Assembly: GCA_036172245.1 (NCBI GenBank)
Contig: JAYWIR010000019.1
Span: 1,116,001 to 1,180,000, forward strand
Length of the DNA: 64,000 bases
Direction: 5' to 3'
From: Raillietiella orientalis
Lineage: Eukaryota
The position numbers and the translations under genes were made by a program. Within the stretch, counting starts at the first letter, position 1; each line of letters begins with the position of its first letter. The notes under the pieces are model-generated. The model had not been told where the DNA came from, did not search any database, and was given only the letters and a program-made list of their open reading frames with translations. Of this stretch, positions 22,653-62,131 are shown piece by piece.

Positions 22653-24812
22653 TTGAAACCCGGTTCGCCGGGACGTTTATTTTTTCAAATAAACTTATAT
22701 AATGTGTGACTGGACCAGTAGTCCAGCCACGCCCTGGAAACATTCAGCCTGCCAGGCTACCGGTGCGCAGACCGGCGCGGTCGACTTCGGCAGCAGAGGG
22801 GAGGGGGAACGAAACAAAAAGAAAACAAAAAAAAAAAAAATAAACAAAAATCAGGGAGGGAGCGGGAAGGGATCACAGTCTGCTGGGAGGGTCCGTCATC
22901 ATCTGGAGGATGCCGGCAAGCTGCTTCTGCGTGTGTGGTTCCAGATGGGGCCATCGCGTCGCCATCCTGAGGAAACGGGCGGCATACACGTTGGCATCCC
23001 TGTCGCTGGATCCTCCCGTCGCTTTGCTCCATGCCACGACGATCCCTCGTAGGCAGCACAGGGCTGCAAGCGAGGCCGCTGGAGGCAGGGCGTCACGGAC
23101 GAAGAGGGGGCGCAAAGCGTCTCTGGGGTTGCCTCCGGGGATCCCCAGGGCTGTGGCAAAGCGTTCATACAAGGGACGGAGGGCAACACAATCCACTAAC
23201 AGGTGGGGGAGGTATTCCCTCTCCCCGCACCTGACACAATTGGGGTTGACACCCCCCCGCGTCCAGTGGTGTCGGCGGGCGTTGCAGGGGAGGCCCCAAT
23301 GCAACACCAGGAGTGCCGACTGTTGCCAATTCATGGGGAGGGTGCGCGAGTCCATGAGCACCGAGGGCCACTCCAGATGTTCCTCCGGAACATCCAGTAG
23401 CTCGCCCCAGCGCAAGAGTCCACTTGGGGTGGTCCTCGGGGTCGCAGCGTTGGTGAGCTGACCCGTTCTCCAATCCCCGACCTTCTTTGCCCTGCTGGCG
23501 ATCTTGACAGTAACCTCCCATTGTGCCGCGACGTCGCTGCCCAGATGTTCCCGTAGGGTAGGCAGTACCGCAGCAAGGGAGGTTCTTTGAGCCCACGCTC
23601 TCCTTCGGGGATCCTCGAAGATTTCTCGGAGCGTGCGGTAGGCGTGCGGCCCGAACAGAGCTATTCGCTCGTGTTGCGGGCTCTGCTCCTGAGTCATCGC
23701 CCACGTGCGGACGGTTTCCTGCAACCAGGCAGGACCGTTCGCGGGGCGTACGAGGATCCGCGCCGAGTTGTTCTTCACGAGCTTGGCCGCCCTCCGAAGT
23801 TGAAGTCCGCAGTGGCAGATGGGGCTTCGGAGTGCAAAGTAGGACGAGAGTCCCGCATTGCACGTGGCCCGCTCGACGAGGAGACGTGCAGGGAGGCACC
23901 ATGGGGTGCACCAATTTTCTGCCATAAAGCCGACAACTCGGAACTGGAGCTGTAGCTCCAGCCGCTCCAACGTCAGGAGGCCCAGACCATCCCGACGAGG
24001 AGCGCACAAGTCCGAAAGACGGACTCGGGGCCTCCCTCTGCCCCAAAGGGCGATCCTCAGGAGGTCCTTCGTCCTCTTCTTTGACTCCGCTGAGGGGGGG
24101 CAAACAAAAAGCAAGGGGCGAAGGAGAGGGGCCGCAAACGCGTTCCACGCTGCGGCCCGTTCATGCAGGAAGAACCTGCCGTTCTGGAACGGGCCGATCG
24201 CCGCCTGAGCCTTCTGAAGGCAGACGGACCACGCTTCCGCAGGGGAGTAATCCCCAACGGCACACCAAGGTACTTGATGCACCTCACCGTGGGGATCCCC
24301 AAACGGACCCAGTCCTTCTGCCCTGCCCACGCCGCTCCGACTGGCATTACGGACGACTTCGCCCTGTTCACCGTCAGTCCTGTTTCCCGACTCAGCAGGT
24401 TGAAGAAGTTCTCGACCGCCGAGGCCGGGGTGGACATAGGCAGCAGCAGCAGAAGGTCGTCCGCATACGCCGAAACCGCAGGCGTACCGGGACAATCGCA
24501 CGGCAGGTGCGCCAGAGTCTCCCTGTACGCTCTCAGCACCAATTCGAAATAGGCGCTGAAGAGCAAGGGGCTGAGGCTGTCTCCCTGCCGTATGCCGCTT
24601 CGCACCGGTACGCCGTACACGGTGGATCCACTGAAAAAGACATTAATAAGCGCGTCGCGCCAGCTGGAGCGCAGGTAGGCCAGCAAAGAGGCCGGGAAGC
24701 CCAAGCGTTCCAGAAGCTCCAAAAGGAGATTCTGGTCGACGCAATCGAATGCTTTATGCAAATCGACTGCGATCGCGAGGGCCCCTCTCCCCTCCCGACC
24801 ATCCCGTCCCCC
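22653..24812 (-). mobile_element. L1/Tx1-clade LINE fragment A: RT C-half, C-terminal zinc finger, 3'UTR and hairpin end (possibly the 3' half of element X)
   Basis: AIAVDLHKAFDCVD, GIRQGDSLSPLLF, AYADD, YLGVPL, HWGLPCN and CVRCGEREYLPHLLVDC; frameshift near 24250; stop at 22873; terminal ATAAACGTCCCGGCGAACCGGGT. Confidence 0.9.
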
Positions 24813-26357
24813 ACCGACGGACGCACCGGAATTCCGGTTGCTTATTATGCTCCTTAGTAGGGCAGTGCAGGATTTCCCTGTACGAGAGGAGGATGTTGAC
24901 GGCCTCTCCGTACTCAGCGGGGGGCAGCGCGTGGAGGTCGTCTGCAAAGACGTAGCCTTAGCACAGCGCCTCATTAACATCCCGCTGAATGTGGATGGCC
25001 GGAAGATCCTGCCGGTTAGCATGGACCGCTCCGTAGTGGTCCATCTAACCGGCATTACGAACCGCATAACGCGATCTGCGGTGAGTAATGAATTAAGCAA
25101 ATACAGTGAGATACACGCGTTGTGGCCAAAGCCTACTATTTTCGAAGGCTTTAATAGCCATTTCGGAGGCCAGGCTGCAGCGCGTGTAACGGTTAATGAG
25201 GGCAGTGGCTTGCCCCAGAAACTAGAGGTCGCAAAGGAATCCGTCGACCTCTGGTACGTGGGGAAACCCCGCTATTGTGGCTACTGCGATGCAGTAGGGC
25301 ACTTGCGCAAGCGGTGCCCGAATATCGAGTGCGACTTGTGCGGGGTCAAGGGGCACGTTCGTCGTGTGTGCCCCAAACGTCCCACCCCGGTGCCACCTGC
25401 TGCCAAAAAGGCACAGTCTAAAAAAGGAAAAAAGGTCGAAAGACCTTATCGCGAAACTGGCCGGCCCCAGCCACCATCTCCTGTTCCTCCCACCCAGGCG
25501 TCGGAGGAAAAACCCGCTGAAGACGAGGGAGAGGAAGAAGGATGGAAGCTGGTAAAGGCCAGAAAAGAGAAAAAAGTTCCCCCCGTGGAACCCGCGAGAG
25601 CGAAGAGAGAAAAGAGCGCGAAACCGAATAAACCCGGTCCGCGCTCGAAAACTCTTTGCGAGTGCACGGTGGCACTCGAACGGATTGCCGTCCCCGAGGC
25701 TGCCACCCGGGGCGACGAGCCTCCCCTCGCCGTTTCCGCCGCGCCCGAGGTTCGCGACGACGAACCCTCTGTTTGCACAGAGGGTGAGCCGCGCGAAGCG
25801 CGCGCCGAAAGCGAGGACGCCGCGTTCGCGCAGGCGGCGGAGGAACTCGCGGCCACGCTGGCCGAGCGTGAGAACCCCTCACGCAAGGCCGTGCGAAGGC
25901 CGGCTCCGCCGAAGAAGGCCCCCGCAGGTGAGTGCGACCTGGGGGCCGGAAGTGCATCCTCCTCGTCGGAGGCACCCCCCGGAAGACGGGACGCAAGTCC
26001 CAAAAGCCGAGGAGGCGCCTCCCCTCCACGAGCGAGGAGGAGAAGCAGGAAGCCGACGGCAGCGTGGGAATCCCGGAGGGGGAAATCCCACACGCGGAAG
26101 TCGTCGAGCAGGCCACCTTCATGGAGGAGGGTGAGCAGGGGGGCGAAGTCCTCCTTGCCGGCGCGGACCCTGTACAGCCCACCCCTATGGAGGAGGGCCA
26201 AAAGGTAGGCGCGACCCCACCGGAGGATGACCCGCCCGACGCGCCGTCACCGATGGAGCAGGGGGACCGGGTGCTCGAGGCACCTGTCCATCCTGCTCCA
26301 CCTAGCGTCCCGCCCCAAGAGGTGGCGGACGCCGCAGAGCCGATTTCCCAGGAATAA
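24813..26357 (+). pseudogene. LINE B ORF1 (gag-like, zinc knuckles), N-truncated, frameshift in the C-run at ~25980
   Basis: CGYCDAVGHLRKRC and CDLCGVKGHVRRVC. Comparison with Y ORF1 shows the protein continues in ORF 25932-26357. Confidence 0.85.
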
Positions 26358-29300
26358 CACCTGGGCTCGCCTGTCGGCGTCGAATCCGCGTCGCCAGTTG
26401 GAACGTCAACGGGCTGCGCGACGACGGCAACAGACGAGATACGGCCGACACACTGCGTGAGTTGGACCTGGCCCTGCTGCAGGAGATCCACGTGATCACC
26501 TCGGCAGACGTCCAGGTGATCGAGACGATCGCGGGGGGTCGACTGTATTGGCGATGCGGCACCCGCAACACCTGTGGGGTCGCGTTTTTCGTGAAGCCGG
26601 CCATCGACGCTGCCGTGAAGGGCGTACGCTTCGATGACGACGGTCGGGTCGGTCAGCTGACTCTCAGCTGGTCCGACTCGATCGAATTGATCGTCACGAA
26701 CATGTACGCCCCAAGCGGAAAAGGGGGATACAGCGACCGTACCAGGTTGCTGGAAACCCTGAAGCGCGACTGGCTGGCCGATACGAACGTGCGGAAGGCA
26801 CACCTGATAGCTGGGGACTTTAATCTCCGTCTGCTGTCAGGTGAGCCCGAAGCACAAGAACGCACGGCCAACGAGTTGTGCGCTGCCATGCGCACGCGCA
26901 ACTTGTTGGCGGACGCGGAGGGAATGGACCGCAGCATCGACCACTTTTTCCTGGATGTCGACCTGTGCTCGCGGGTCGGCAAACGGGGAAAAGTTGCGTC
27001 GACGCTGTCGGACCATTCCAGGTTAATCGCCGACGTTTTCCCGCGCGATAAAGGACCCCCGTCCAGGGTGTGGCGGCTGCCTGGGGACTGGACGCGGTTC
27101 TCAGGTGCGAAGGAACACCTTCGCGAATTCCTAAGAGGCGTCACTTTCCGCAGTCTCAAAGATTGGGACCTCTTCAAGGCCTCGGTCCGCGAGTTCTGCG
27201 AGGAGTTCCCCCTGCACCGCCTGCCCCCCGGATTTGGGGAGGGGGTTCGGAACCATACGGCCTATTTACAGGCCCGCCGGTACGAGAGGACCCCCAATGT
27301 CCGTCGCCTGGCAGAGTACCGAGCCGGGGCCGAACGTCAAGCCTGGCAATCCGGATCGGCCAGCTTGCTGGACGACCAGGGCCGGGAGCACTCGGCTCCG
27401 GCTAGAATACGGCACCTCGTGCGGCGTTTTTATTCCTCCCTTTACGCCAGGGCGCCCCCGGACCAAGATGCCTCTCGGCGCTTGCTTCCGAACGGTGCCC
27501 CGGCAATAGGGGAGGAGGAGAAGGAAAGTCTCGACGAGCCTTTTACCACCGGCGAAATTCTCGCCGGTATCAAAAGGCTCAAGAGGCGGAAAGCACCAGG
27601 GGAGGACGGCCTGCCTGCGGAGTTTTTTCAATGCTTCGCGGCAGAGTTGGCACCCCTGGTGCTTGAGTTGACAAGGCTGATCCGAGATGAAGGCGATGTA
27701 CCCGCCTCGTTTCGGTCAGCCAGAGTGAGGCTCCTTCCGAAAGGAGGAGACCTCAGGAAACTCAGCAACTGGCGTCCAATCACAATTGTGAACACGGACG
27801 CCAAGTTGATCGCCGGACTGTGGGCTTCGCGTCTGGGGCAGGTGGCCAATTCCATAATTAGCCCGGAGCAGACTTACGCTGTTCCCGGGCGAAGTATGGA
27901 GGCCAACCTCTTCTTCGCGAGCACATGGTTTCATGTGCAGAGTAGTCAAGAAAAGGAAGAGGGAAGGATTGGCAGCCCCGCTTTGGGAGCGTCAGCCGGG
28001 CAGGGACAGGACTCCCAGGTGGGGAAGGGAAGCCCTAGCGATCTCAGTCGATCTGCACAAAGCGTTTGACTGCGTGGACCAGGATCTCCTGCTGGAGCTC
28101 CTGGGACGCATGGGCTTCCCTCCCTCCCTACTGACCTACCTGCGCTCTTGCTGGCGCAGCGCGCTGATCAATATCTCTTTCAGAGGTCAAATGGCGTACG
28201 GCGTGCTGGTACGGCGGGGCATACGGCAGGGCGACAGCCTCAGTCCCCTGCTCTTTAGCACCTACTTTGAGTTGGTGCTGAGAGCGTACAGGGTGACTTT
28301 GGCCCCCTTGCCGAACTCGTGCCCCGGCACGCCCGCCGTAGCAGCATACGCCGACGATCTTTTGCTTCTGTTGCCGATGTCCACCCCGGCGAAGGCGGTC
28401 GAGGATTTCTTCGATCTGCTTAGCCGCGGGACCGGACTTACGGTGAACAGGGCGAAGTCGACGGTGGTTCCAGTCGGTGCGGTGTGGGTTGGGCAGCAGG
28501 ACTGGGTCCGCTTGGGGATCCCCACGGCGAGGTGCTTGAAGTACCTTGGTGTGCCGTTGGGGGACTACTCCCCTGCGGAAGCGTGGTCTGGCTGCCTCCA
28601 AAAAGTGGAAACGGCGATCGGCCCGTTCTTGGAAGACAAGTTTCTCCTTCCGGAACGGGCCGCGGTATGGAACGCGTTCGCGGCTCCTATCCTCCGCCCC
28701 CTGCTTTTTGTTTGCCCCGTCCCCAGAAAGTTGAAAAAACGGACGAAGGACCTCCTGAGAATTGCCCTTTGGGGAAGAGGGAGGCCCCGAGTCCCGTTGA
28801 AGGACTTGTGTGCTCCACGTCGGGATGGCGGTCTCTGCCTCTTGACGATGGAGCGAGTAGAGATTCAGCTGCGGTGGCGAACCCTCGCCATTGCAGCGAA
28901 GTTATGGAGCACCCCTTGGTGCGTTCCGGCCCGACTCCTTGCCAGCCGTGTATCCGGAACGGAGGGTCTCGCGTCCTATCTTCTGTGCCGTGGCAGGAAG
29001 ATCAAGAGATGCGGACTTCTCCTGGGACGCATGGCAACTCTGGCTAAGGAAAACGGCTGGATGGTATGCAGCCCCGCCAACTCCTCCGCATGGCTGGAGG
29101 AGACAGCTGGCACGTGGGCGAAGATTAATGAAAAGAATGAAGAGATGTGGAACTGCCTGCGACGCGGCGCCTATTCCCGCTGCACTCTGCGGAAGATACT
29201 CCAGTGTCCCGCGAGAAGCACGTGGGCAGAGACAACCCCCCTAGCTACGGCGATGCCCTTCCTGAGGAGGGCGCTCTCCAGCAGCCGCAAGCCTAGGTGG

Positions 29301-29945
29301 CAAGTCTCCTGCCGCATCGCAGGCAAGGAGAAGTTGATCAACGGCTGGTCCACGGGTGAACTGGCGGACGCCAGTACCCCTACTGTCCAGCCGAGAGGAC
29401 TCCAGAGATGGGGTGAGCTACTCGGCATCCAGCCGGATGACCTGAAGTGGCCCCCGGTATTAATTGGTTCTAGGATCCTCCCCCTAAAGTGGCAGGAGTC
29501 GGCGCTTCTGTTGTTGCATTGGGGTCTACCCTGCAACGCACGCCGCCACCACTGGACCAGGGGTCGAGTAGATCCTACCTGCATCAGGTGTGGGGAACGG
29601 GAAACCCTCCCCCACCTCCTTGTTGATTGTGCTGCCATCCGACCCCTGTGGGAACGTCTTCGTGCCTCCCTACGGATCCAGGAGGGCAGCCAGCCCAGAG
29701 ACGTTTTTCGGCTTCAGTTCGTGCATGATGCTCTGCGTCCAGCCGCTACCCTGGCTGCACTTTGCTGCGTACGCGGGATTGTGACGTGCTGGAGCAACGT
29801 CAGAAGACCGAGCCACGACAGGGATGCCGTCGTACTTGCAGTCCGCTACCTGCGGATTGTGACCAGATGGCCCCACCCGGGAATTATACGGACGGACCTC
29901 GAGGGCATCCTGCGAAGGATGGACCCTCCTCCCAGTGATCAGTGA
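26357..29945 (+). pseudogene. LINE B ORF2 (AP endonuclease, RT, CCHC), AUG-less start, one +1 indel at ~28030
   Basis: APE motifs WNVNG, LQEIH, YAP, GDFN, SIDH and SDH. RT motifs KAPGEDGL, NWRPIT, EQTYAVPGRS, DLHKAFD, QGDSLSP and YADD. Confidence 0.9.
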
Positions 29946-30151
29946 TCCCTCCCCAACCCCCCCAAATCTTTTTTTTTTTATGTTTTATTTTTCTTTTTGT
30001 TTTTTCCCCCACCCCCTTCCGCTGCCGAAGAGAGTCGCGCCTGTCTGCGTACCGGCGACCCGGCAGGTCCAGTTGAGTTGGCCGTAGTGGGGCCTCGTAC
30101 CACGAATCAAAGAGAATTTTTAATAAACGCCCCGGCGTGACCAGGTGGCAA

Positions 30152-31995
30152 CCAGCAACTTGGCGTCCGGATTCACTATTGTGATGGGACGCCAGTTGTT
30201 CATGCTCCTCAGATCTCCTCCCTTAGGGAGGAGCCGCACCTTTGCCGAACGAAACGAGGCGGGAACGTCACCTGTTTTGCGTATCAGCAAGGTGAGTTGC
30301 TGTACCAGGGGGGTAAGCTCAGCCGCGAAAGTTCGATAAAACTCCGCGGGCAGGCCGTCCTCCCCTGGAGCCTTTCGCCTCTTGAGCTTTCCGATGGCCG
30401 AGAGGATCTCGTCCATCGTGAAAGGCTCGTCGAGGGTCTTTCTCTGCTCCTTCCCGATCGCTGGAGCGCCTTCCGGAAGCAGGAGTCGTGAGACGTTCCT
30501 CTCCGGAGGTGCCCTGGCATACAGGGAGGAGTAGTAACTCCGCAGCAGGCCGCGGATTTGGGCAGGTGCCGAGTGCTCCTGGCCCTGATCGTCCAGTAAG
30601 CTGGCCGATCCGGACTGCCAGGCTTGCCTCTCGGCTCCCGCTTTGTATTCCGCCAGCCTGCGGATGTCGGGGGTCCTGGCGTAACGACGGGCCTGCAGGT
30701 GGGCTCGTTCGTTACGGACCCCGGTCCCAAAACCCGTGGGTAGGCGGTGCAGAGGGAACTGGTCGCAGAACTCCTGGACCGACCGCTTGAAGCGGTTCCA
30801 ATCCTGGAGTGTCCGCAGCCTGAAGCTCCGTATGAACGTGCGGAGATGTTCCGCCGCGTCCGGGAGCTTCAGCCAGTCCCCTGGGAGACGCCACGCTGAC
30901 GAGGGGGGGCCCCTGTCACGCGGATGGATCTCGAGGACACGCGGGCGATGGTCGGACAGCTCGCACGGTAACTTGCCGCGCCTGCCCACGCGAGGGCACA
31001 GGTGCTCGTCAAGAAACACGTGGTCAATGCTGTCTTCCATCCCCGGTGCACTGGCCAACAGATTACAGGTGTGCACCGCCTTGCACACCTCGTTGACCAG
31101 GTCACGCTCGGGATTCTGCTCATCTGGTTTCAGGCGAACGTTGAAATCGCCTGCAACCAGATGGGCATTCCGCACGCCTGCTTCGGTCAGCCAGTCTCGC
31201 CGGAGGGCAAGGAAAAACTCTTTCCTCGCCCTCCTGTTCATCAGGTCCTTGCCGCTCGGTGCGAACACGTTCGTGACGATCAGATCGATCGAGTCGGACC
31301 ACCTGAGAGTCAGCTGGCCGACACGACCGTGATCGTCGAACCGCACGCCCCGAGCCGCGGCCTCGACGGCTGGCCGAAGCAGGTAGGCGACACCGCAACT
31401 TTTCGCTCTCCCACACCGGTACCATAGCCGCCCTCCGGAGATCCGTTCGATCTCTTGCGCTTGTTCTGCAGAGATCACGTGGATCTCCTGCAGCAGCGCA
31501 AGGTCGTAGGACTCCCGAAGGGCGGCCATGTCTCGTCTCCTGCCGGCGTCTGTCATGCCGTTCACGTTCCAAACGGCGATGCGCAGACGACGGCGGGAGG
31601 AGATTCCCGGCATTACTGCTGGGAAGATTAAGGTGTGGGGGAGCCCTCCTCTTGCGAGGCGGGCGGGATGTCCATGGGGGTTTCGGCCTTCTCAGGCACC
31701 TGAGGCACCTGTTCGGCCTCCACCCCCTCCATCCCCTCCGTGTCCGCGCGTGGGAGTCTCTCGGGCGACGGGTCCCGAGAGTTTCCCACGCTCATGGCAC
31801 CCTCGCTTGCGGAAGCCATCTCTTCCCCTTCGACGGGGGAGACGAGCTTCCTTGGCTTTGTGGACTTACGTCCAGCCTTCTTGCGCGGTGCCGTGGAAAC
31901 GGAGGCTGCGCTTCCGGCCTCCACCTCGGGGTCGGAAGTGGGGGACTCCTGAGGGGAGGCCGGACGCCTTACGGCCTTCTTGCCAGCCTTAAAGG
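30152..31995 (-). mobile_element. LINE X, downstream part: ORF1 C-terminus plus ORF2 APE and RT N-part (31613-30152)
   Basis: ORF1 tail KKAVRRPASPQES... continues the ORF1 broken at 37661; an uninterrupted homolog lies at 44440-44500. TAATG overlap at 31615-31611. ORF2 is cut after DAKLL. Confidence 0.85.
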
Positions 31996-32207
31996 TTTAC
32001 ACCCGGGTACGCCCGGGGCGTTTATTTTTAAAAAACTCTACATCCGCGGTACAAGGCCCCGCTCACGGCCATATGCACTGGACCTGCCGGGACGCCGGGA
32101 CGCAGCCCAGCGTAGCGTTCCTCAGCAGCGAAGGGGGATGGGGATAAAACAAAAAGAAAAATAAAAAAAATAAACAGACAAAAAGAAGTTGGAGGGCAGG
32201 GAAGGGA

Positions 32208-35200: not shown

Positions 35201-35803
35201 AGCGTCGAGGAAGACGTGGTCGATGCTGCGGACCATTCCCCTCTCACCCGCGAACAAGTTGCGCGCACGCATGGCGGCGCACAACTCGTTCATCGCGTTC
35301 ACCTGTGTTTCCGGCTCACCTGTTAGCAGGCGGAGATTGAAATCTCCCGCTATCAGGTGAGCCTTCCGCACGCTCGTGTTCGCCAGCCAGTCGCGCTTCA
35401 AGGATTCAAGCAGCCTGGTACGGTTGCTGTATCCCTTTTGACCGGTTGGGGCGTACACATTCGTGACGATCAGATCGATCGAGTCCGACCAGCCGAGAGT
35501 AAGCTGACCGACCCGACCGTCGTCATCGAAGCGCACGCCCTTCACGGCAGCGTCGATGGCCGGCTTCACGAAGAACGCGACCCCGCAGGTGTTGCGGATG
35601 CCGCATTGCCAGTACAGCCGACCCCCCGCGATCGTCTCGATATCCTGGACGTCTGCCGCGGTGATCACGTGGATCTCCTGCAACAGGGCCAGGTCGAACT
35701 CCCGCAGGGTGTCGGCTGTATCTCGCCTGTTACCGTCGTCGCGCAGCCCGTTGACATTCCAACAGGCCGCGCGAATCCGACGGCGACTGGCGAGCCCAGG
35801 TGT
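32208..35803 (-). pseudogene. LINE Y ORF2 (APE-RT-CCHC), AUG-less start, one -1 indel at ~34130
   Basis: ORF-track pieces 35683-34124 and 34340-32208 carry all APE and RT motifs. The frame begins at ACA overlapping the ORF1 TAA. Confidence 0.9.
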
Positions 35804-37554: not shown

Positions 37555-37660
37555 TGGACACCGACGATGTACACAAAACACCACACAGAAGAAAAAGCGC
37601 TGTCCTACTACTCTTTGGGGAGTGAAGGAAAAACACGTCCTCCAACTGGCCGCGGGGGGG

Positions 37661-50576: not shown

Positions 50577-53500
50577 CACTATGCGGATCACCTGGCTGGG
50601 GGTGGCACGCGTTTTTGGTTAGCTCCCGTGAGCGACACCAAGAAGGAAGTTCGAGTGTGTGTAGAAGTGCGGCCGTTGGAAGGCAGGAATGCCTGAAGAT
50701 GCCGCAGCAACTGTGACGGGAGGCGTGAGACCCACGTCTCCCCAACCAATGGAGGTGGGGTCATGCCCCACCACGAAATCTGCCCCCGCCGCCCTGGCGA
50801 GGGCATGGAACAAAGTGGCTGCGGCGCCCCTGAACGTGGCTGCGAAAGTACAGGCCTACATTAAGGAGGGCTACAACCCTGCCCTCCTTTATAAGGTAGG
50901 TAATTTATATTCTCCGCTTACAACACGGAAATTTGGCAACGCCATCCGAAGGATGGGTATCTCTGATGAGGAGATTCTGTGCTTCTTGGTTCGGAGCTGC
51001 GGGCAGTTCGAGGAGCTGATCTGCAGAGATGCAGCGCTCACTCACAAACTGCTCTGCATGTCCGTTCCTTTTGAAGGACGGAATCTCCTTCCACACACGG
51101 TGGATCACTCTATAGTGATCCACCTAACAGGAATAACAGTGCGGATAAGCGACGAAGCCATCTGCACTGAAATAAACAGATTAGCGGAGATTTACGCGAT
51201 GTGGAAGAAGCCCAATGCCTTCACATATCGAGGCGCATTTAGTGGGCAAGTTGCCGCTCGCGTAACTCTCCGCGATAATTTTCAAGTTCACCACAAGCTG
51301 GAGATCAACGACGAGCTCGTTGATCTCTGATTCGTGGGGAAGGAAAAATACTGCGGGCTATGCAACACGTTTGGGCACCTCAAGAAGAGATGCCCGGACG
51401 CCATATGCCCAACGTGCGGCGGGAAGGGCCACACTAGCGTCGTGTGCCCGAAAAACGCCGCTACAACGCTGGAAACCCCGAAAATACAAGGAGTGGGGAA
51501 GAAGGCCGAAAATCAATTACAACGCAATATCCAGCTAACTTCAGAAGAAGTCATGCAGAAGGACCAGAATTCTCAAAAGGAGACTTCTGAGTCAACTGCC
51601 GACGAGGAAGGCTGGAAAACGGTCGTAAGTAAAAACCAAAAGAAGTACAAAATAAAAGCAAAAAAACCAAACAACTTACTACAAGTCAGAACGCGAGCGT
51701 TTCAAAGAAACCCTCGAAAGGAAAAAATAAAATCTCGCCGCGCGAGGAATTAAAGGAATGCCGCGTTACAATCGAACGCGTTCCGTCGATCGAGCGTCGA
51801 TCGGCGAACGCGAAACCCTCAACCGTCGCGGACGTCGCGGAACCGCCGCAGGAAACGTGCGGCAAGGACGCGAGCAGCAGCGACGAGAAAAACTTTGCGA
51901 AGGTGGCAAGGGAACTCGTGGTCACCTTGATGCAGCCGCCTAAGGGTGCAAAGAAAGCCGTGAGACGCCCGGTGGAAGTCAAAGGACCGGAAAATTCCGA
52001 GTCCGAGGCGGAAGCCGGAAACGCTCCCACCGTCGCCCTCCCGAAGAGGAAGGCGGGCCGGAAGTCCAGCAACCCTATGCGCGTCGCTTCCCCTCAGGCT
52101 GAGAAGGAGGAAATGCTCTAGGGTAGCGAGGAGGCGATGTCCTCGAGGTCGCGTGATCCCTCCGTGGAAAGCGTCCGGTCCGATCTTCCGATCGACCTGA
52201 GTCCTGCTGCTGACGTTCCGGTCGTTGCCGAAACGCCGTGTATGCAGCTGGACATCGACCAACCGCCTCCCGAACAGGAGGCGGCAACACAATCGCCACC
52301 ACCATCATTAGTATGATGCGTGGAATCGCCTCTTGCCGGCAGCTGCGTATAGCCTGTTGGAATGTCAACGGGCTGCGTAGCGAAAGCAAGAATCGTAGTG
52401 TGGCCGACACCCTGCGACCTTTTGACCTGGCACTTCTCCAAGCGGTTCACGCTCTCAGGGGAGAGGACTTCCAGGAGATCGAGAGGCTCACAGGGGGGAG
52501 GCTACTTTGGCGTTCCGGTGGAGACCACTCCCGCGGAGTGGCCTTCCTGCTAAAGCCAGCCGTCGCAAATGCGGTGAGCAATGTACAGTTCGACGGGCAA
52601 GGTCGAGTTGGGCAACTTGTCCTCAAGTGGTCCGACTCGATCGACCTCGTAGTCACGAACGTGTACGCGCCCAGCACCAGACACAGGCATGAGGAACGCA
52701 TTGCGTTCTTCGAAGGCGTGCGGCGAGACTGGTTGGCCCAAGCAGGCGTGCGGCGGGCGCATCTGATAGCGGGAGACTTCAACGTCGGCCTGCTGTCGGA
52801 AGCGCCCGACATAAGAGCACAATTGGTCAACGAGTTGTGTGCGGCGATGCACGCGCGCAACTTGTTGGCCGATGAAGCCGATGTGACGAACCGAATCGAC
52901 CACATGTTCCTCGACAACCACCTGTGCACGCGGGTGGGAACTCGAGGAGCACTCGCGTCGGAGCTGTCCGATCACCCTTGGCTAGTTCTCAACATCTATA
53001 CGCGAGGAGAACACCAGAGCGCTCCTTTGCGCACCGTTTCTTGCCAGAGGCTGCTCCCGCGTTAAGGGAGGGAGAGGTTCACACCTTCCACCAGGAATTC
53101 AAGATGGCGGAGATTGTCTCCTCCATCGTGAAATTAAGAAAACCTTGAGCACCAGGGGAAGAAGGCCTGCCAGCTGAATTCTACCAACACTTCACGGCAG
53201 AGTTGGTCCCCCTGGTGCTCAAATTATGCATGCTGATCCGTGAACGTGGGGATGTCCCCAACTCGTTCCGGTCAGCTAGAGTACGTCTCCTCCCTGAGTG
53301 AAGATACTTGCGCAACGTTGGCAACTGGCGTCCCATCACTGTAGTGAATGCGGGCGCGAAGTTGCTCGCCAAACTCTGGGCTGATCGGCTGGGACGGGTA
53401 GAGGAATCCGTGGTCAGTCCGGAACAGACTTACGCTGTTCCCGGACGAACCATGGAGGGCAGCCTTTTCCTCGCCATTCTGGCAGCTGCAACAACGCGAG

Positions 53501-55767
53501 GATCAGCTAGGTCGGAAGAGAGCTGCACTCTCCACTAACCGAGGGAGGGAAGCCGAAGAGTAGAAGCGACGGCCGGAACCCTTGCGGCCGTAGTCGATTA
53601 GCGAGAAGCTTTACACTGCGTCGACCAGGAACTCCCTCTGGAACTCTTGAAACGCATGGGATTTCCGGCCGACTTCCTGCCTACCTGCGCTCCTGCTGGC
53701 GCTTCGCGTTCATCAGTATTAATTTCAGCGGCCGGCACGTGTACGACGTGCCGGTTCGTCGCGGCATCCGGCAGGGTGACAGCCTCAGCCCCCTGCTCTT
53801 CAGCATCTACTTTGAGTTGGTGATGAGAGCATACAGGGAGACTTTGGCAACCCTGCCGAGCTCGTGTCCCGGCACGCCTGCCGTGTCGGCCTATGCCGAC
53901 GACCCTCTGCTTCTGCTTCCCGGGTCCACCCCGGCATCGGCGCTCGAAGATTTCTTTAAGTTGCTGCGCCGTGGGACAGGCCTCGAGGTAAACAGTACGA
54001 AGTCGTCGATTACTGCATCGGACTTGTCACGGGCAGGACGATCGGACTGGATCCGTCTGGGGATCCCCACGGGCGGGTACCTCAAGTACCTTGGCGTTCC
54101 GTTGGGGGACTTCTGCGCTGCGGAAGCCTGGTCCGACCGTCTCCAAAAGGTGGAGTTGGTGATCGGCCCATTCCGAGAGGCCAAGTTTTACTTGCAGGAA
54201 CGGGCCGCGGTGTGGAACGCCTGTGCGACCCCCCTCCTCCGCTTTCTACTTTTTGTGTGTCCCGCCCCTCCCAAATTAGGACAAGGACAAAGGGCCTCAT
54301 TTGAAAAGCCCTCTGGGCAAGCCCGCGTCCGGCTTAAAGACTTGTTCGCTCCACGCAGGGACGGTGGACTTGGTCTCTCTCGCGTCCTTGGGCACATGGA
54401 GCTACAACTCCAATTTAGAAAACTTGCCCTTGTGATAAAGAACTGGCAAGCACCTTGGTGTGCTCCGGCAAGACTCCTCGCCCACAGGGCAACCGGCTGC
54501 CACGAAATGACCTCAATCCTGAGAGCCAAAGACCGTAGCCTGAACCATTGTTGGTTTCAGCTACGCGATCTGGTTGCCCTGGTGAGGGAGAATCTGTGGA
54601 TCTCCTGCATCCCTGCGGACTGGACTACCTGGCTACAGTAGTCCGTTTCAGCGTGGGCAAAATCAACGGCTCCAGCGATGAGGACTTGTGCTGCCTCCGT
54701 AGAGGCAGGTACGCTAGTCAACCAGTGCAGGAGATCGGTTGCAACCCACGGAAACTTCTATGGACTTTCTTCACCCCCTTTACCCCCGTGCTGCCCTCCC
54801 TCAAGGAAGTTAGGGACAGCCAACAGGAGGCATCGTGGGAAGTGTCCAGCCTCTTCGGTGGCAGGAAGAAACTGATGAAGGCGTGGACGTCCCGGGAACT
54901 AGCGGACGCTAGTACCCCGAGTGTCCCGCTGAATGGACTTGTACGCTGAAGCGCGCTGCTCGACATACCTCCGGAGGAGGTGAAGTGGCCCCCAGCGTCT
55001 TAAGATAACGTCTCTCTTTCCCTGCAGTGGCAGGAGACGGCGTTGCTTCTGCTCCATTGGGGACTTTTGAGCAGAGCATGCCTGTCTCACTGGACATCGG
55101 GGAGTATGGATGCTAATTGTGTAGAGTGAGGGGAAAGAGAGACCTTCCCCCACTCAATCATCGAGTGTGTTGCCCTCCGTCAGATGTGGGATCGACTCTC
55201 GTCGATCCTGAACATTCCGGGGGGCGACCCCAAGAACATTTTTAGACGCCTCCTGATGCGGGACGCCATGCCAGCCTCCGGGTGTGTAGCAGTGCTTTGT
55301 TGCATACGCGGAATCCTGGATAAGTGAACCGTGTCAAGGAGAGGCCGGACTAGTCGGAATGCCATTCACTGGGCAGCCATCTCCTTGGAGAAGGCCTGCC
55401 GTTGGCGCCGACTCAAGAAACATTTGCCGGCACTTGTTTGCATCCGCAACCGGGTGCAGAGGCCTCCTCAAGGTGTACCCTGGTCCTCTCCTTTCGCCCG
55501 CACCAAAGAATATTGCCCCCCCCCCCAGGCGTTTTTTTTTTTTTCTCTCTTATTTTTGTTTTTCCCGCCCCAGCGCCAGTGTAGAGGACCTTGTCGGCCT
55601 ACTGGTCGGTAAGGACAAGCGCCTCAAGACAGTCGAATCATGTGTTCCGACTGAAAGACAAATCAATGAAAAAAAAAAACCTTAATTGACAAGCAAACAA
55701 GACTTTATTATGAAATTTTTATTGTTAAAATTTTAATAATAAAAGCTCCGGCTCACCCGGGTGAAAA
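50577..55767 (+). mobile_element. Full-length but decayed LINE U nested in V, flanked by 7-bp TSD ACCAGGG
   Basis: TSD at 50570-50576 and 55768-55774. ORF1 starts at 50689, TGATG overlap at 52314-52318, APE/RT motifs with many stops; ends AATAAAAGCTCCGGCTCACCCGGGTGAAAA. CA(+1)CT at 50577 with GCACGC at +28. Confidence 0.85.
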
Positions 55768-55975: not shown

Positions 55976-57345
55976 ACTCCCTCTCTGGGTTTTGGGGAAA
56001 ATGCCGAGTCGGTGAAGGGGCGGCTGCCTGCAGCGTGTTATTGAGGGACGCGCCGCTACTTTTGACGGTTTTCGCGACTGTCGCAGATGATCCTTCTTTG
56101 CTTCGGGGCTTTGAGGAACTCGGAAGGGACAACGGAATGGGGCAGGAAGCACTCGCATTGTTGCGATCTTCCTGCTTTCCTACCTTTCTGTCCAGGGATT
56201 TCCTGTTTTTTCCTGGTTCCTGGCTCAGAGAGGTGCTTGCGAGTTCTGCGGCGAGGGCGGGCACTCAACTCGTCGAGCGCTCGCGCCCCTTTTTAATTGG
56301 CCGTGATTTCGCCCTTCCGGGGCGTTACGGGCGGGGACGCCTGTTGTTTAGCCGCGTAGTGCTAGGCTCTTTTGTCAATACTTCGCGAACACCGTTTTTT
56401 CCTGAGTGCAGCGGCCTTTTGTGCATTCGTCTCTTGGACTTGATGAAGTTCCGCTGCTGCCCTTTTCTTTGCAAGGACTGAGCACTTTTTTATTTCGTGC
56501 CCGGTTTCTTTGCAATAGCGGCATTTTGGGGTGGGACATTCCTTTATTCGGTGTCCCTCCTTGCCGCACTGCTCGCACGCGCGAGTCTGACCTATGAACC
56601 ACAAGTGAACGACCTGTGGTTCACCTGCAGCTGCTCAGACACAACACGCCTGTTCGCGACGGTGATCCGTGCGGAGGCTTGTCCAATGTGGACAGAGGAA
56701 AAATCCTTTAGAGGATTTGGCCTCCTCCACAGAGCGTGCACCGTGGCGAACTTCGCCAGCACGCTTGCGACATCGCGGTCGGAAACTTTCGGCTCGATGT
56801 CGTACAATTGAACACAAAAGCGTCGTCCATTACGGTAGGCAGGACTTCCTTGCCACCGATGGGCAGTGGAGCACGGAGAAGCCGCTGCACAAGTGCTGCG
56901 TTCTTGCACCGTATCTTGGTGTATTCCATCCTGCCTGCAGGCATGATGGCAAGGAGTTCCTCCTTGCGAACGCCGATCGGACGAGCTCATCGTTGAGCAC
57001 ACGCCCGGTTCTCCACTGACCTTATAGCGGAGTGCGGTCATGTAGCCTGATGCCTCATATGCCTGCTATTCCTCATCGCATGGTCCTGGTCCTTGAGAGG
57101 TAGCAGCAGCGTAGCTCCTCACCGAAAGCGAAGAAACCGTCACGGAGAATTTGGCCGCTTTTAATCCAGCTGAAGTAGATCTAACGGCTTGCTCCTCCAC
57201 ACTAATCTTGGTAGTGGCCATGTTGCACAATGCTGCTTGGCCGACTCCACAGAAACACACAAGTGCGAGAGAAAACGCAGGCAGAAAGATGCTCAATCGC
57301 TTAATCTATCGGGCGCGGAGAGACGGGAAAACACGTCTGCACTGT
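55976..57345 (-). mobile_element. Decayed LINE T (Z-like): 5'UTR and ORF1 (ATG 57221)
   Basis: AGACGTGTTTT at 57338-57328; FATVHALWRRPNP; CEQCGKEGHRIKEC and CRYCKETGHEIKKC; frameshifts. Confidence 0.8.
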
Positions 57346-58124
57346 ACGAGCTCGAGTGATCGAAGGGATCTCGGGTGGACAGCTGCTGTGAAGCTGCGAC
57401 ACCATCAAATCTTGCGGTGTCGCGTTCCTGCCTCCTCCAGCTGTCGAAGCCGTGGCAAAGGGCGAACGGTTCGATGGTTCCGGTCGCGTCGGCCAGCTGA
57501 CCCTCAGGTAGTCCGACTCCATCGATCTGGTCATTACCACCTTTTTTTTTTTTTAAATAAACGTCCCGGAGTACCCGGGTGGCATCGCCCCGAGCGGCAG
57601 CGTCGCGTTAAGGGCAAAGGCAAGGAGAGAGTTCTTCCTTTCCCTAAGTCGCAAACATCTGGTCGAAGTGGGAGTGCGCAAAGAGCACCTTATCGCAGGT
57701 GACTTTAACCTCCGCCTGCTCTTAGGTGTGCCGGACACACTTCGGGACCGTGTCAACGAGCTGTGCGCAGAGATGCGCACGCGCAACTTGTTCGCGGGAG
57801 ATCCGGAAATTGCCAACAGCATCGATCACATGTTCCTCGACCAGCACCTGTGCCCTCACGTGAAAAGGCATGGCAAGTTACCGTCCGAGCTGTCCGACCA
57901 TCGCCCGATCGTGCTCGAGATTCATCCTCACGACAGGGGCCCCCCTCGTCAGCGTGGCGTCTCGTAGGGGACTGGATGAAGCTCCCGGACGCTGTGGAAC
58001 ATCTCCGCCCGTTCATACGGAGCTTTAAGTTGCGGACCCTTCAGAACTGGGACCGCTTTAAGCGGTCGGTGCAGGAGTTCTGCTACCACTTCCCTCTGCC
58101 ACCGCCTATCTGGCGGATATTGGG
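57346..58124 (+). mobile_element. Decayed APE-domain fragment carrying a ~43-nt 3'-end mini-insertion at 57542-57584
   Basis: IEGISGG...DSIDLVIT[insert]APSG...HLIAGDFN...SIDHMFLD...LSDHRP. Confidence 0.8.
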
Positions 58125-59823
58125 TTACCAGCCTAGTGCGCCTGGGGCGTTTATCGAAAACTCTACAGCACGTGGTACAATGCCCCACTAACAACACCGG
58201 ACCTGCCGGGACGCTGGGATGCAGCCCGGCGTGACTCTTCCCTGCAGTGAAAGGGGATGGGGAAAAAAACAAAAAGAAAAATTAAAGCATAAGAAAAGCA
58301 AAAAGAAGTTGGAGGGCCAGTAAGGGATCACTGATCACTGGGAGGAGGGCCCATCATTTGCAGGATGCCCACGAGCTTCTGCCTTCCACCCAGCTGGGGC
58401 CATCGAGTAGCACTCACCATGAAGCGACTAGCATACGGGATGACGTCCCTCTCGTTGTAAACATCTTCGTCGTGGGCATCAATCCAAGCCGCCACGATGA
58501 CTCGTATGCAGCATAGTGCTGCCAGCATTGCGGTTGACTGCAGGGCATCCCTCGCGAAGAGGAACCGGAGAACGTCTCTGGGGGCGCTGCCAACCGGGAA
58601 CCCGTATGTCGTTCCAAAACGGTCCCATAGGGGTCGGAGGGCAGCACAATTAACAATAAGGGACGGTGTAAACAAAAAGCAGAGGGTGCAGGATGGGGAC
58701 CGCGAACGTGTTCCAAACCGCAGCCTGTTCCGGCAGAAGGAACTTGCCTTCCGGAAACGGGCCGATCGCCAGCTCTACCTTTTGGAGACTATCTGACCAG
58801 GCTTCTGCGAAGCAGAAGTCTTCCAACGGGACTCCAAGGTACTTGAAGCACCCGCCCGTGGGGATCCCAGGAGGATCTAGTCTGGTCGTCCTCCCTACGT
58901 TGCACCAACCGCTACCACCGACGACTTCGCCTTGTTCACCCGCAGTCCTGTCCCGCGGCTCAACATGTCGAAGAAATCCTCGACTGCCTCGCTCTGTATG
59001 CTCTCAGCACCAGTTCGTAATACGTGCTAAAGAGCATGGGACTCAGGCTGTTGCCTTGCCGGATACTGCTTTGAATAGGCATGCTGTGCGCTATTTGTCC
59101 TCTAAAAAAAACGATGATTATCGCATTGCGCCAGCAGGAGCGCAGGTAGGTCGTTAAGGCGGCCGGGAAGCCCACGCGATCCAGGAGCTGCAGAAGGACT
59201 TCCTGGTCCACGCAGTCGAATGCTTGATGCAGATCGACTGCGATCGCTAGAGCCCCTTCCTGCACGGTTGTCCCTTGCTCCGCTGGCGCCCCCAAATCAG
59301 GGTTACCGACAATTCGTTTTTTCTTACTTTCTTCCCTTTGCACATGGAACCATGTGCGGGCGAGGGACAGATGCGCTTCATTGCGTCGCCCGGGAACAGC
59401 GTAAGTCTGTTCCGTGCTGACGAAGCTGTTCACTAACTTTCTCAACCTCGCAGTCCACAGTCCCGGGATCAACTTAGCGTCCGTGTTCACAATCGTGATC
59501 GGACGCCTGTTGCTTAATTTATGGAGGTCTCCTCCCTTAGGAAGAAGCCTTACCCCGGCTGAACGAAACGAGGTGGGAACATTGCCTCCGTCTCGAATCA
59601 GCCGTGTCAACTAAAGCATCAGGGTTACCAGCTCTGCCGCGAAGCATTGGAAGAACTCCGCCGGCAGGTCGTCCTCCCCTGGCTCCTTACGCCTCTTGAG
59701 CTTTTTGATACCAGCGAGAATTTCTCCAGTCGTCAAATGCTCGGCGAGGGTTTGTTTCACCTTCTCCCGTATGGCCGGGACTCCATCCGGAAGCAGGAGT
59801 CGCGAGGCATTCCACTCCGCAAG
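58125..59823 (-). mobile_element. Decayed, internally deleted LINE ORF2 with 3' end
   Basis: RRPITIVNTDAK...EQTYAVPGR...GALAIAVDLHQAFD in one frame; deletions near 58990 and 58665; degenerate hairpin end at 58125-58155. Confidence 0.8.
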
Positions 59824-60512
59824 TTTCTTACCCGGGTAATCCGAAGCTTTTATTATTAAAATTTAACAACAAACTTCATAACAAAGTCTTGTCTTTTGGT
59901 GTAATTTTTCAGTGAGAACACATCGTTTTCTTGGGGCGACTGTCCTCACCGACTTGCAGACCGGTAAGATTCTCTCCACTGGCGAAGGGAGCGAAGAAAA
60001 AAAGGGGGGGAAGCCTGGGGGACGATGTTTTATGGAGATGAGAGGGAAGGGAAACGATTACGGTACGCCATAGAGAGACCTCTGCATCCGGTTTTGGATG
60101 CGAACAAGTGCCAGCAGAAAGTTTCTAAGTTGGCGCCAACGGGAAGCCTTCTCCATGGAGATGACTGCGCAATGGATGGCATTCAGACATCTGCGGCCTC
60201 TTGTTGACGAGGTTCACTTGTGCAGGATTCCGCATATGCAGCAGAGAACTGCAGCACACGCGGCGGCTGGCAGTTCATCCCGCCTCTGGAGGTGACGAAA
60301 AATGTTTTTAGGGTCGCCCACCGGAATGTTTAAGATTGAAGAGTCGATCCCACATGAGGAGGAGGGCAACACACTCGATAAGTAAGTAGGGGAAGGTCTC
60401 CCTTTCCCCGTACTCTACACAATGGGCATACATTCTCCCTAATGTCCAGAGAGACAGGCATGCTCAGCTTAAAAGCCTCCAATGGAGCACAGGCAGCGCC
60501 GTCTCCTGCCAT
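59824..60512 (-). mobile_element. 5'-truncated LINE 3' fragment (U-like) with hairpin end
   Basis: WQETA...CVEYGERET remnants; ends AATAAAAGCTTCGGATTACCCGGGTAAGAAA. Confidence 0.75.
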
Positions 60513-60753
60513 GGCATCCCTGGCAGTACGTCACTGAAACATTGCAACGAGAGGGACGCCATCGTATATGCTGTACGATTTCCGCGCACTGCTACCATAT
60601 CGTCCCACTTGAGGAACATTCGTGAGGACTTGAACAGGATGGACCCTCCTCCCAGCGCTTAGTAATCCCTTACTCCGCTCCAAAGCCTTTTTCTTATCTA
60701 TGCTTTGTTTTATTTCTGATTTTGTTTTTCCCCACCCCTCTTCTCTGCCAAGG
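60513..60753 (+). mobile_element. Short LINE 3' fragment (B-like ORF2 end and partial 3'UTR)
   Basis: ...LNRMDPPPSA*, then TCCC and a pyrimidine tract, cut just after CTGCC. Confidence 0.65.
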
Positions 60754-62008
60754 TTTCTCACCCAGGTTAGCCGGGGCTTTTGTTATTAAAAATTTTTACA
60801 TAAAAAAAATTACATAATAAAGTCTTTTTTTGTTAACAGTATTTTTCTTTTTAGGTCAGCACAAAAGTTTTGGCTGTCTTCGGACACTTCTCCTTACCAA
60901 CCCGCAGGCCGATAAGTTCCTCCACACTGGCGCAGGGGCGGGAAAAATAAAAATAACCAAAAAAAAAAAAAAACGCTTGGGAGAGCAATGTTTTTTTGGA
61001 GGGAAGGAAAGGGAGGAGATCACGGTACGCCGTGAGGAGGCCTCTGCATCCACTTCCGTATACGAACAAATGCCGGTAAATGTTTTTAAAGTCGGCGCCA
61101 ACGGGAAGCCTTCTCCATGGATATGGCTGCGCAATGGATGGCATTTCGACTAGTGTGGCCTCTTCTTGACGCGGTCCACTTATCCAGGATTCAGCGTATG
61201 CAACAGAGCACTGCTACACACCCGGATGCTGGCATGGCGTCCCGCATCAGGAGGCGTCTAAAAATGTTCTTGGGGTCGCCCCCCGGAATGCTCAGGATCG
61301 ACGAGAGTCGATCCCACATCTGACGGAGGGCAACACAGTCGATGATTAAGTGGGGTAAGGTCTCTCTTTACCCTCACTCTACACAATTAGCATCCATACT
61401 CCCCGATGTCCAGTGAGACAGACATGCTCTGCTTAAAAGTCCCGAATGGAGCAGAAGCAATGCCGTCTCCTGCCACTTTAGGGAAAGGATGCCGTTGTCT
61501 GAGGGCCACTTCACCTCCTTTGGAGGCTTGTCGAGCAGCTCGCTCCAGCCTATAAGTCCATTCAGCGGGACAGTCGGGGTACTAGCGTCCGCTAGTTCTC
61601 GGGACGTCCACGCATTCAACAGTTGAGGCAGGACACAGTTGCATCCGATGAGGCAGGACACAGTTGCATCCGATGAGGCAGGACACAGTTGCATCCGATG
61701 AGGCAGGACACAGTTGCATCCGATGAGGCAGGACACAGTTGCATCCGATGAGGCAGGACACAGTTGCATCCGATGAGGCAGGACACAGTTGCATCCGATG
61801 AGGCAGGACACAGTTGCATCCGATGAGGCAGGACACAGTTGCATCCGATGAGGCAGGACACAGTTGCATCCGATGAGGCAGGACACAGTTGCATCCGATG
61901 AGGCAGGACACAGTTGCATCCGATGAGGCAGGACACTTCCCACTGTGCCTCCTGTTGGCCGTCTGTGACTACCCTGAGGGAGGGTAGCACGGGGAAAGGA
62001 GGGGTTAG
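60754..62008 (-). mobile_element. 5'-truncated LINE 3' fragment (U-like) containing the 25-bp array
   Basis: Close match to 54780-55760 (WEVSCL...AWTSRELADASTP...WQETALLLLH); ends AAAAGCCCCGGCTAACCTGGGTGAGAAA. Confidence 0.82.
61625..61936. repeat. Perfect tandem array, unit GAGGCAGGACACAGTTGCATCCGAT (25 bp) x12 plus 12 bp
   Basis: Read directly; no unit variants seen and no spacers. Confidence 0.97.
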
Positions 62009-62131
62009 GTGAGTCCCGTCTGTCTGCATATTGGCGAGGCGACAGGACCGATGTTGGCTCTGCCATAGTGGGGCCTTGTACCACGAATGTAGGTAGAGTT
62101 TGTAACCAAACGCCCCTGCCTGACCGGGAAA
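62009..62131 (+). mobile_element. Isolated LINE 3'UTR end (B-like) forming the right border of the cluster
   Basis: Matches 30030-30150 (AGTGGGGCCTTGTACCACGAAT...AAACGCCCCTGCCTGACCGGGAAA). Confidence 0.75.

Follow-up and report, generated by a model that had tools for sequence, protein, structure and literature searches.

Nested LINEs of Raillietiella orientalis probably insert at family-specific sites inside the coding DNA of their sister families

The 64,000-bp stretch of the Raillietiella orientalis genome analysed in this study (assembly GCA_036172245.1, 210 Mb in 491 contigs; contig JAYWIR010000019.1, C19:1116001-1180000 in our numbering; hereafter the window) contains at positions 22653-62131 a 39.5-kb array of nested long interspersed nuclear elements (LINEs). 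We observed that the 3' ends of these LINE families recur, on many contigs, at particular bases within the coding DNA of related LINE families, and that target duplications of 14-15 bp accompany the family sites. The best explanation, to which we assign a probability of about 0.8, is that each family inserts at its own exact base inside the coding DNA of its sister families. This is sharper than the initial annotation of the window, which had proposed a preference of the lineage for integration into its relatives. In addition, one of the families, W, carries a complete U4 small nuclear RNA (snRNA) at its 5' end.

Insertion sites within sister families

Junctions were counted by hand from genome-wide pattern listings, using the first 100 matches in contig order where more exist; patterns with a leading or trailing degenerate letter lose about a quarter of their matches at random. 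The family letters (X, Y, Z, V, W, T and F) were assigned afresh and may differ from those of the initial annotation, whereas C and L numbers denote contigs and loci. In family Z, 69 of 98 ends lay antisense in the codons of reverse transcriptase (RT) motif A, A-V-D-L-x-K-A-F-D (DxxKAFD), and a further 12 were followed only by the motif-A duplication and another Z copy in tandem, giving 81/98 on-site ends and 17 others. Family X ended antisense at one RT base, 'DAKL[IL]^A' (DAKLIA), in 33 of 77 cases, two of them tandems; four of the remaining ends were at a second site in open reading frame 2 (ORF2), two elsewhere in the lineage and 38 in other DNA. When only long X copies were considered, 27/30 (including the copy in the window) were at the site, two were cut by contig ends and one was elsewhere in the lineage. 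Both halves of the target flanked X, and among 20 extended loci the 12 with a visible 5' end all had the 15-bp copy at the 5' junction, exact over 13-15 bp in five of them.

The Y-type end had 102 matches, and among the 100 listed 37 were in sense orientation at a single site in Z ORF1, three were tandems and four were at an antisense 'LHRLP' site; for Y ends with a TAAA-type tail, 39/44 of the matches listed were at the site. Family W gave 145 matches, and 34 of the 100 listed shared one duplication, antisense in the ORF1 of V-type sister elements, while five ran into U4 from nt ~20 onward; a second V-type ORF1 site for W was seen from the 5' side. The commonest terminus class (316 matches) was antisense at a site in the apurinic/apyrimidinic endonuclease (APE) region in 16 of the 100 listed ends, which came from the large contigs C1-C12, and most of its other listed ends had unrelated flanks as judged by eye. 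Tandems represent re-insertion at the duplicated site, with the duplication alone between the copies.

The initial annotation had suggested comparing the fraction of 3' junctions inside lineage DNA with expectation, and this comparison came out in favour of targeting. In a small background sample of 20 evenly spaced 1.5-kb stretches, lineage DNA made up 1,946 of 30,000 bp (~6.5%) and touched five stretches. The junction lay directly in lineage DNA in 13 of the first 30 ends on C1 (the other 17 had non-lineage flanks), in 13/30 Y ends and in 23/30 Z ends, and the binomial probability of 13/30 is 1.5e-8 at a background of 6.5% and 0.02 at 25%. A further five of the 20 background stretches had a GC content of 0.61-0.68 without any match to this lineage, which implies that the genome also abounds in GC-rich repeats or regions of other kinds. 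The flanks of X formed seven clusters among 21 loci, with a median identity of 94% for the element and 78% for the flank, and the motif-A flanks of Z formed about 11 clusters among 18 loci. The insertion events are thus independent, because the targets come from many diverged families.

According to the mechanism that we propose, a guild of L1/Tx1-group LINE families would integrate by target priming, with family-specific preferences that match DNA inside sister families: Z antisense in RT motif A, X antisense in RT 'DAKL[IL]A', Y sense in Z ORF1, others antisense at APE sites, and W antisense in V-type ORF1s and in its own U4 head. The ORF2 endonuclease would set the site with relaxed fidelity, and an extra cue or later selection would raise the on-site share. 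The conserved codons of relatives could serve as an abundant safe harbour, and the insertion would also disable a competitor. As each long insertion adds sites for other families, nests like the 39.5-kb array would grow by positive feedback, as a by-product of mutual targeting and not as a locus built for the host. Since the sites are base-exact, targeting through chromatin is not needed.

The role of the endonuclease was evaluated from off-target copies and from structure. Duplications could be recovered for six Z copies whose 3' flanks are off-site (one of which has an on-site 5' flank), and in these GCA[GC] preceded the cut in 4/6 and TCGA followed it in 5/6. The off-target Z sites resemble the core of the site in relaxed form, as expected of a sequence-preferring nuclease. 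Available passages on Tx1L describe an endonuclease that itself nicks the target site (PMC1950540). The APEs studied here retain catalytic-type motifs, and a model of the X APE (pLDDT, the predicted local distance difference test score, 79) matched L1 EN with a Z-score of 21.9 and a root-mean-square deviation of 2.7 over 206 aligned residues, tied with ExoIII-type rows. The spacing from DFN to IDH could be measured in nine of the 11 representatives and was 35-39 residues in these; it is 58 in the sequence of the LTx structure, and its median over 109 database relatives is 59. In the shortened segment the X model has no beta-hairpin, at low confidence (pLDDT 57-70), and the missing ~20 residues would probably include the minor-groove specificity hairpin (bB6-bB5). 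The 10-mer core of the Z site had 824 matches in the genome and 275 for the reversed control. About 15 of the 100 listed core matches fell, by eye, in the antisense C-terminal 'HLLFDC' motif of another LINE family, where no listed Z end was found.

Weighing mutual targeting against its alternatives

Several observations count against targeting set by base-exact sites. The commonest class was at its own APE site in only 16/100 listed ends, 38/77 X ends had flanks unlike lineage DNA, and 11 of the 21 X flanks came from one target family. The counts are inflated by identical blocks (L217/L222, L218/L221, L219/L220 and L052/L053), and the background rests on no more than 20 x 1.5 kb. The 5' and 3' duplications disagree in C68, C19b and the Y copy of the window, and recombination has therefore reshuffled copies. 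The APEs are ~20 residues short where the specificity hairpin would be expected, which is awkward for a site set purely by the endonuclease. Moreover, the Z core 10-mer is insufficient, because only about one fifth of its first 100 listed matches lay in lineage RT, far below the on-site share of Z; the shortfall must be made up by longer contacts, tethering, pairing with RNA or subsequent selection. Dispersed singletons, named in the initial annotation as the finding that would speak against it, do prevail in part, namely for the commonest class and for short copies. The identical blocks themselves (the first three pairs between C11 and C13, the fourth between C19 and C101) reflect either recent segmental duplication or uncollapsed haplotypes.

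One alternative, which we regard as unlikely, is guidance by read-through RNA: a transcript extending past the tail-less 3' end would carry the flank, pair with the same sequence in a sister copy and prime reverse transcription, so that target choice would be inherited via RNA and a weakly specific nuclease would be enough. The absence of poly(A) and the presence of ends of the hairpin + G-NN-AA type would fit this scheme, as would a tail variant that tracks subfamily and site, the ~20-residue shortening of the APE, the enrichment left unexplained by the Z 10-mer, and the flank of L052 = L053, which turns from Y-like to Z-like ~450 nt beyond the junction while its upstream flank is Z-like. That chimeric flank would be produced by read-through or by recombination, and it was the only one (in two identical loci) among 25 profiled loci, whereas most 5' and 3' flanks come from the same target family with matching duplication variants. 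In addition, the Z targets vary widely at synonymous positions, and off-target sites have the core motif without flanking homology. When the 3' hairpin loops were compared by eye with the targets, no consistent complementarity was seen across families. The joint action of a weak motif bias, purging of long copies from host DNA and multiplication of a few composites by segmental duplication and recombination seems to us more unlikely again. Identical duplicated blocks and mismatched duplications do occur, long X copies are almost all on-site and short ones mostly dispersed, and on-site rows of X, Y and Z are denser on small contigs, all as this history would have it. However, the same base was used in at least seven (X) and about 11 (Z) distinct target clusters, tandems have the duplication alone between copies, and purging would not single out one base of a 5.9-kb element.

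The functional reading that follows the initial annotation is that of a host-maintained locus, either a trap resembling a cluster of PIWI-interacting RNAs or a heterochromatin or centromere array that attracts the lineage via chromatin, and we now consider this very improbable. Mostly antisense sites would yield antisense RNA if the nests were transcribed, and in Coccomyxa the Zepp nests mark probable centromeres, according to passages of PMC3446292. Yet base-exact sites with duplications point to sequence and not to chromatin, nests occur on many contigs with several on one contig, and no other transposable element (TE) class is caught in this nest, unlike in a general trap. The notion that the lineage builds its own locus was likewise not borne out, as nests lie on many contigs and the strict 3' hairpin of the lineage has 2,254 matches genome-wide. 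An extension of mutual targeting to a closed LINE community whose members prey on one another is doubtful: its members would have lost the specificity hairpin, would find the conserved coding sites of rivals with the help of their own RNA and would knock them out in antisense, while W would carry a still-functional U4 head (Sm site, k-turn) that channels its RNA into the small nuclear ribonucleoprotein (snRNP) pathway, maybe supplying or regenerating host U4 genes.

Structure of the array, its families and the U4 head

When mapped onto full-length references, about 21 LINE pieces in both orientations fill 22653-62131. The initial annotation was right about the orientations and had counted ~18 pieces. 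Loci elsewhere in the genome covered 95.0% of the array, and the four uncovered gaps of at least 60 bp (47371-47932, 51454-52265, 59825-60016 and 61625-61914) contain C-terminal parts of ORF1, a 3' piece that belongs to the lineage and, within ORF2, a tandem repeat of 25 bp. Neither host DNA nor any other class of TE was found within 22653-62131, in agreement with the earlier description, which also holds for the nested pieces, the adjacent 22 kb and the borders. Both borders are outward-pointing 3' ends, on the minus strand at ~22653 and, in degenerate form, on the plus strand at ~62131. In the flank at 1-22652 a single stretch of 139 bp was covered and it was non-lineage, nothing was covered in the 1.9 kb past 62132, and the next 9.9 kb of the contig beyond the window had one weak ORF2 match. 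The GC content was 0.29-0.47 in host DNA versus 0.51-0.65 in the array. A public DNA run (28% of sampled words present) contained no span of this stretch and no host flank, and the assembly of the array is not thereby independently confirmed; the same run carries two recurring joint types: in one an X-type end + AGAA enters the APE site, in the other a Y-type end enters the 'LHRLP' site.

The pieces are listed in Table 1. In the left half, Z lies antisense within the RT of piece G and itself contains a full-length Y, in sense orientation within its ORF1, and X, antisense within its RT; the 5' part of X appears to be joined to piece F through a deletion. In the right half, T lies within W ORF2, a 45-bp 3' end within an APE, and a 3' piece antisense behind that APE. 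The two flank copies of the window Y differ between the 5' and 3' sides, as if from two Z subfamilies. The possibility that the first 14-18 nt at 39046 are the antisense 5' end of an element was rejected, since they are target duplication and flank.

Table 1. Pieces of the array at 22653-62131, with positions numbered from the first base of the window.
Piece	Position	Strand	Content and junctions
Piece F	22653..24857	-	3' 2.2 kb of a lineage-A LINE, RT motif A region through 3' hairpin; its 3' end borders host DNA on the left
Family X	24858..30151	+	nearly complete; lacks the first ~540 nt, apparently together with some of the target; 3' end antisense at the X site in Z RT, 15-bp duplication 30152-30166
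Family Z middle	30152..31995	-	ORF1 end, APE, RT start to DAKLL; hit by X at one end and by Y at the other
Family Y	31996..37643	-	full length; occupies the Y site of Z ORF1 in sense orientation
Family Z 5' end and ORF1	37644..39045	-	5' junction abuts 14-bp duplication at RT motif-A codons (HKAFD) of piece G
Piece G	39046..41190	+	RT from HKAFD to 3' end; target of Z; own 3' end antisense in V ORF2
Family V	41191..44240	-	ORF1 (663-aa open frame), APE, linker
Z-type copy, internal deletion	44241..45083	+	ORF1 end joined to 3' untranslated region (UTR) and Z 3' hairpin
Z-Z tandem joint	45084..45990	+	motif-A-type duplication only, then Z 5' end and ORF1
Lineage-A copy	45983..47169	+	ORF2 C-terminal part, partial 3' UTR
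V-like family	47170..47939	-	ORF1 end and APE start; W inserted antisense beside it
U4 snRNA, complete	47940..48078	+	5' head of family W; k-turn G.A pairs, stem I region and Sm site retained
Family W leader, ORF1, APE	48079..50597	+	lineage B; resumes at 55768-55995 past the T insertion
Family T	50598..55767	+	near full length, sense in W ORF2
V-like ORF1, decayed	56010..57254	-	
APE piece	57330..58120	+	broken by ~45-bp mini 3' end, 57541-57584
3'-end piece	58121..58660	-	antisense at recurring 'LHRLPxGFG' site after APE
Decayed RT and ORF2/3'-end pieces	58659..61936	mostly -	one plus piece, 60546-60749; terminate in tandem repeat
Degenerate 3' UTR and hairpin	62011..62133	+	right border

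A perfect tandem repeat of 25 bp x 12.5 at 61624-61936 has expanded within decayed ORF2. Outside the array, an R2-superfamily element of the restriction-like endonuclease type, with N-terminal zinc fingers and RT divided among three ORFs, occupies 16156-21500 (-), 1.2 kb left of the array, and Rfam revealed no U2 or rRNA flank of it. A host ORF at 572-1447 (-) has an IRS-type phosphotyrosine-binding domain and is presumably FRS2-like.

Six ORF1 types were distinguished, with 21-74% identity where alignable, and the families fall into two lineages, A (X, Y, Z, V, F and T) and a deep second lineage, B, formed by W with different termini. Elements of lineage A have a GCGGACGTGTTTT-type 5' end and a 3' end of the form AATAAA-hairpin-G-NN-AA without poly(A), for which the reversed control of the strict pattern gave 0 matches; W ends in GGGGAAAA, with the duplication directly after. 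The earlier estimate of at least five divergent families therefore stands, as does that of very different ORF1s, whereas the shared termini are common only to lineage A. The RT frameshifts of the window copies are specific to single copies: a conserved programmed frameshift or intron in RT was rejected, because the indels differ between the window copies and other copies are open over 1,160-1,242 aa. Just before RT motif A, ORF2 of lineage A has ~20 extra G/P/S-rich residues (e.g., window 27960-28045), encoded by a purine-rich tract that carries single-base indels in the window copies and lies close to the Z site.

These elements are APE-type LINEs of the L1/Tx1 group, in which we place them because the best solved relative is human L1 ORF2p and because of a quick RT tree. 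For W, ORF2 had E 1e-55 against human L1 ORF2p and E 1e-26 against R2. The tree comprised 15 of our own representatives (from 35 intact segments), the R2-type RT of the window and 75 database proteins, with a careful search still unfinished; lineage A (10 rows, including X, Y and F) received an SH-aLRT (approximate likelihood-ratio test) support of 100, W (five rows) 96, and the branch joining them 79, both branches being long. Pfam detected zf-CCHC in the ORF1 of W (E 5e-05) and Y (0.002), as well as Exo_endo_phos, RVT_1 and a weak zf-RVT. A zinc-knuckle ORF1 and an ORF2 with APE, RT and a C-terminal cysteine motif are traits of the L1/Tx1 group, and 14-15-bp duplications around full and 5'-truncated copies are typical of target-primed insertion. 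The strict L1 clade is characterized by a 3' poly(A) tail; the elements described here have hairpin or W-type ends, directly followed by the duplication. They share with the Tx1 clade a sequence-specific target preference, ranging by family from 16/100 listed ends to 81/98. Membership in the Tx1 clade is nevertheless not established, and neither is the earlier label 'Tx1-like' as a clade name: no labelled Tx1 reference was among the 200 listed database matches, whose best local identities were 21-33%.

The U4 match at 47940-48078, absent from the initial annotation, is complete and scores 83.9 bits in Rfam; it was the only Rfam RNA in the window, in which no tRNA was found. Rfam detected 42 U4 copies genome-wide. 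W is a LINE of ~5.7 kb, with open frames of 658 aa and 1,179 aa in L112. A host gene trapped in the array was rejected as the source of U4, because of 30 loci 24 run into W ORF1 and four into the W leader; of the remaining two, one matched U4 only and one shows the same W leader on inspection. Similarly, U4 is not a 3' tail of dispersed copies. Among 20 loci, four had no 3' end in the stretch, and of the 16 with both ends 11 had W starting at or just before U4 +1, inside the target duplication that lies just upstream, two were tandem joints at nt ~20 and three gave no match. By inserting at nt ~20 of the U4 of other W heads, W also forms arrays with a 5.7-kb period on C71, C114 and C132.

In 16 U4 heads chosen for variety (42 distinct), 95.6% of cells are paired in the structure derived from Rfam, 22 cells show changes on both sides, and 0/500 shuffles reached either value. 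The pair-count measures failed to beat shuffles (197/500 and 395/500), and relatedness inflates the cell-based measures. The Sm site core and the stem-I region are nearly invariant. The heads were 85% identical as compared with 68% for the ORF1 core, with the head higher in 66/66 pairs, and either selective constraint on the head or its repeated recapture from host U4 would account for this. Of the 42 Rfam hits, 41 were inspected as DNA and none of these was recognised as a free-standing host U4 gene, and no end of a W array at a host U4 3' flank was seen in the inspected sequence of C71, C114 and C132. In 10 loci of lineage-A families no RNA head reached the Rfam gathering score, with only the U4 of W and an unrelated U5 found.

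Some W copies depart from this pattern. L001, L002 and L027 have A/C-rich flanks with a common short motif ~55 nt upstream of U4 +1, which could be snRNA promoters of master W copies. In a subgroup (L030, L129, L178, C25:2626896 and C35:1049748) a common 5' extension takes the place of the first ~10 nt of U4, which suggests that transcription began further upstream. Another W subfamily, in tandem arrays (C26:2879103, C53:345156, C74:175145 and others), starts, over the ~50 bases read, with a sequence of only faint resemblance to the 5' end of U4, which may be a strongly diverged or replaced head. At C8:1284904 a sequence resembling the U5 loop comes directly after a W-type 3' end that lies between strong U5 matches at C8:1282690 and C8:1291771, so W or a relative may touch U5 genes too. 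Of 46 U2 matches, the 10 inspected (L181-L190) all lacked the first ~35 nt and were preceded by varied A/T-rich ends, with no intact U2 among them; they look like 3' junctions of Utopia- or Keno-type elements.

Significance and comparison with known systems

RNA genes, microsatellites, DNA transposons and LTR (long terminal repeat) elements are all known refuges of site-specific LINEs, and the specificity loop of the APE is thought to steer L1-EN targeting. Closely related endonucleases with differing 14-15-bp sites, apparently without that loop, would offer a natural series on APE specificity and bear on programmable retrotransposon insertion. When sister LINEs use each other's conserved codons, including RT motif A, the safe harbour becomes a direct conflict among relatives, and mutual targeting would explain large single-lineage nests that grow without host involvement. 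An autonomous LINE with a structurally conserved U4 head makes snRNP aid to retrotransposon RNA testable. In the open-access literature we found neither LINEs striking the RT codons of sister LINEs nor autonomous LINEs headed by U4, and PMC8869645 yielded no passage on U4.

In the Tx1 clade Tx1L targets Tx1D, Tx1-Mar targets Mariner-N4_AMi, Tx1-9_AMi targets Harbinger, and Tx1-8_Crp and Tx1-4_AMi insert in LTR retrotransposons (Kojima 2015, PMC4494074, as excerpted). Like these, the families described here are APE-type LINEs with two ORFs, a fixed place in another transposon and target duplications. In contrast to the excerpted accounts, the targets are sister LINE families with sites in coding DNA including RT motif A, and at least five families have different mutual sites, mostly antisense, without poly(A) and with a shortened APE. 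Nested LINEs in GC-rich clusters, which reach ~42 kb, are also seen in Zepp of Coccomyxa/Chlorella, but with one cluster per chromosome and one element in the passages of PMC3446292, which describe no base-exact cross-family sites. Here there are many nests and several deep families with many dispersed copies alongside, and single contigs among the 491, e.g., C1, hold several clusters and many singletons.

As regards the U4 head, the passages of PMC4640811 and PMC4494074 report that Keno and Utopia target U2 snRNA genes and that SINEU heads derive from U1/U2; as snRNA-gene targets the 2015 paper names only U2, U1 and U6 in these passages, and a companion tree legend adds U5. W resembles these non-LTR elements in its association with a spliceosomal snRNA, in its tandem arrays at the snRNA site and in having an snRNA at the 5' end. 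W differs from what is reported there in being an autonomous two-ORF LINE with a whole U4 inside its own target duplication and in inserting at U4 nt ~20, the U4 copies seen to be hit belonging to other W heads. Mammalian U6/LINE-1 chimeras, as partly described in bioRxiv 10.1101/2025.02.02.635956, also have a full-length sense snRNA at the LINE 5' end, with the LINE typically 5'-truncated, whereas the U4 heads are carried by near-full-length copies of several W subfamilies, vary with them and keep their base pairs.

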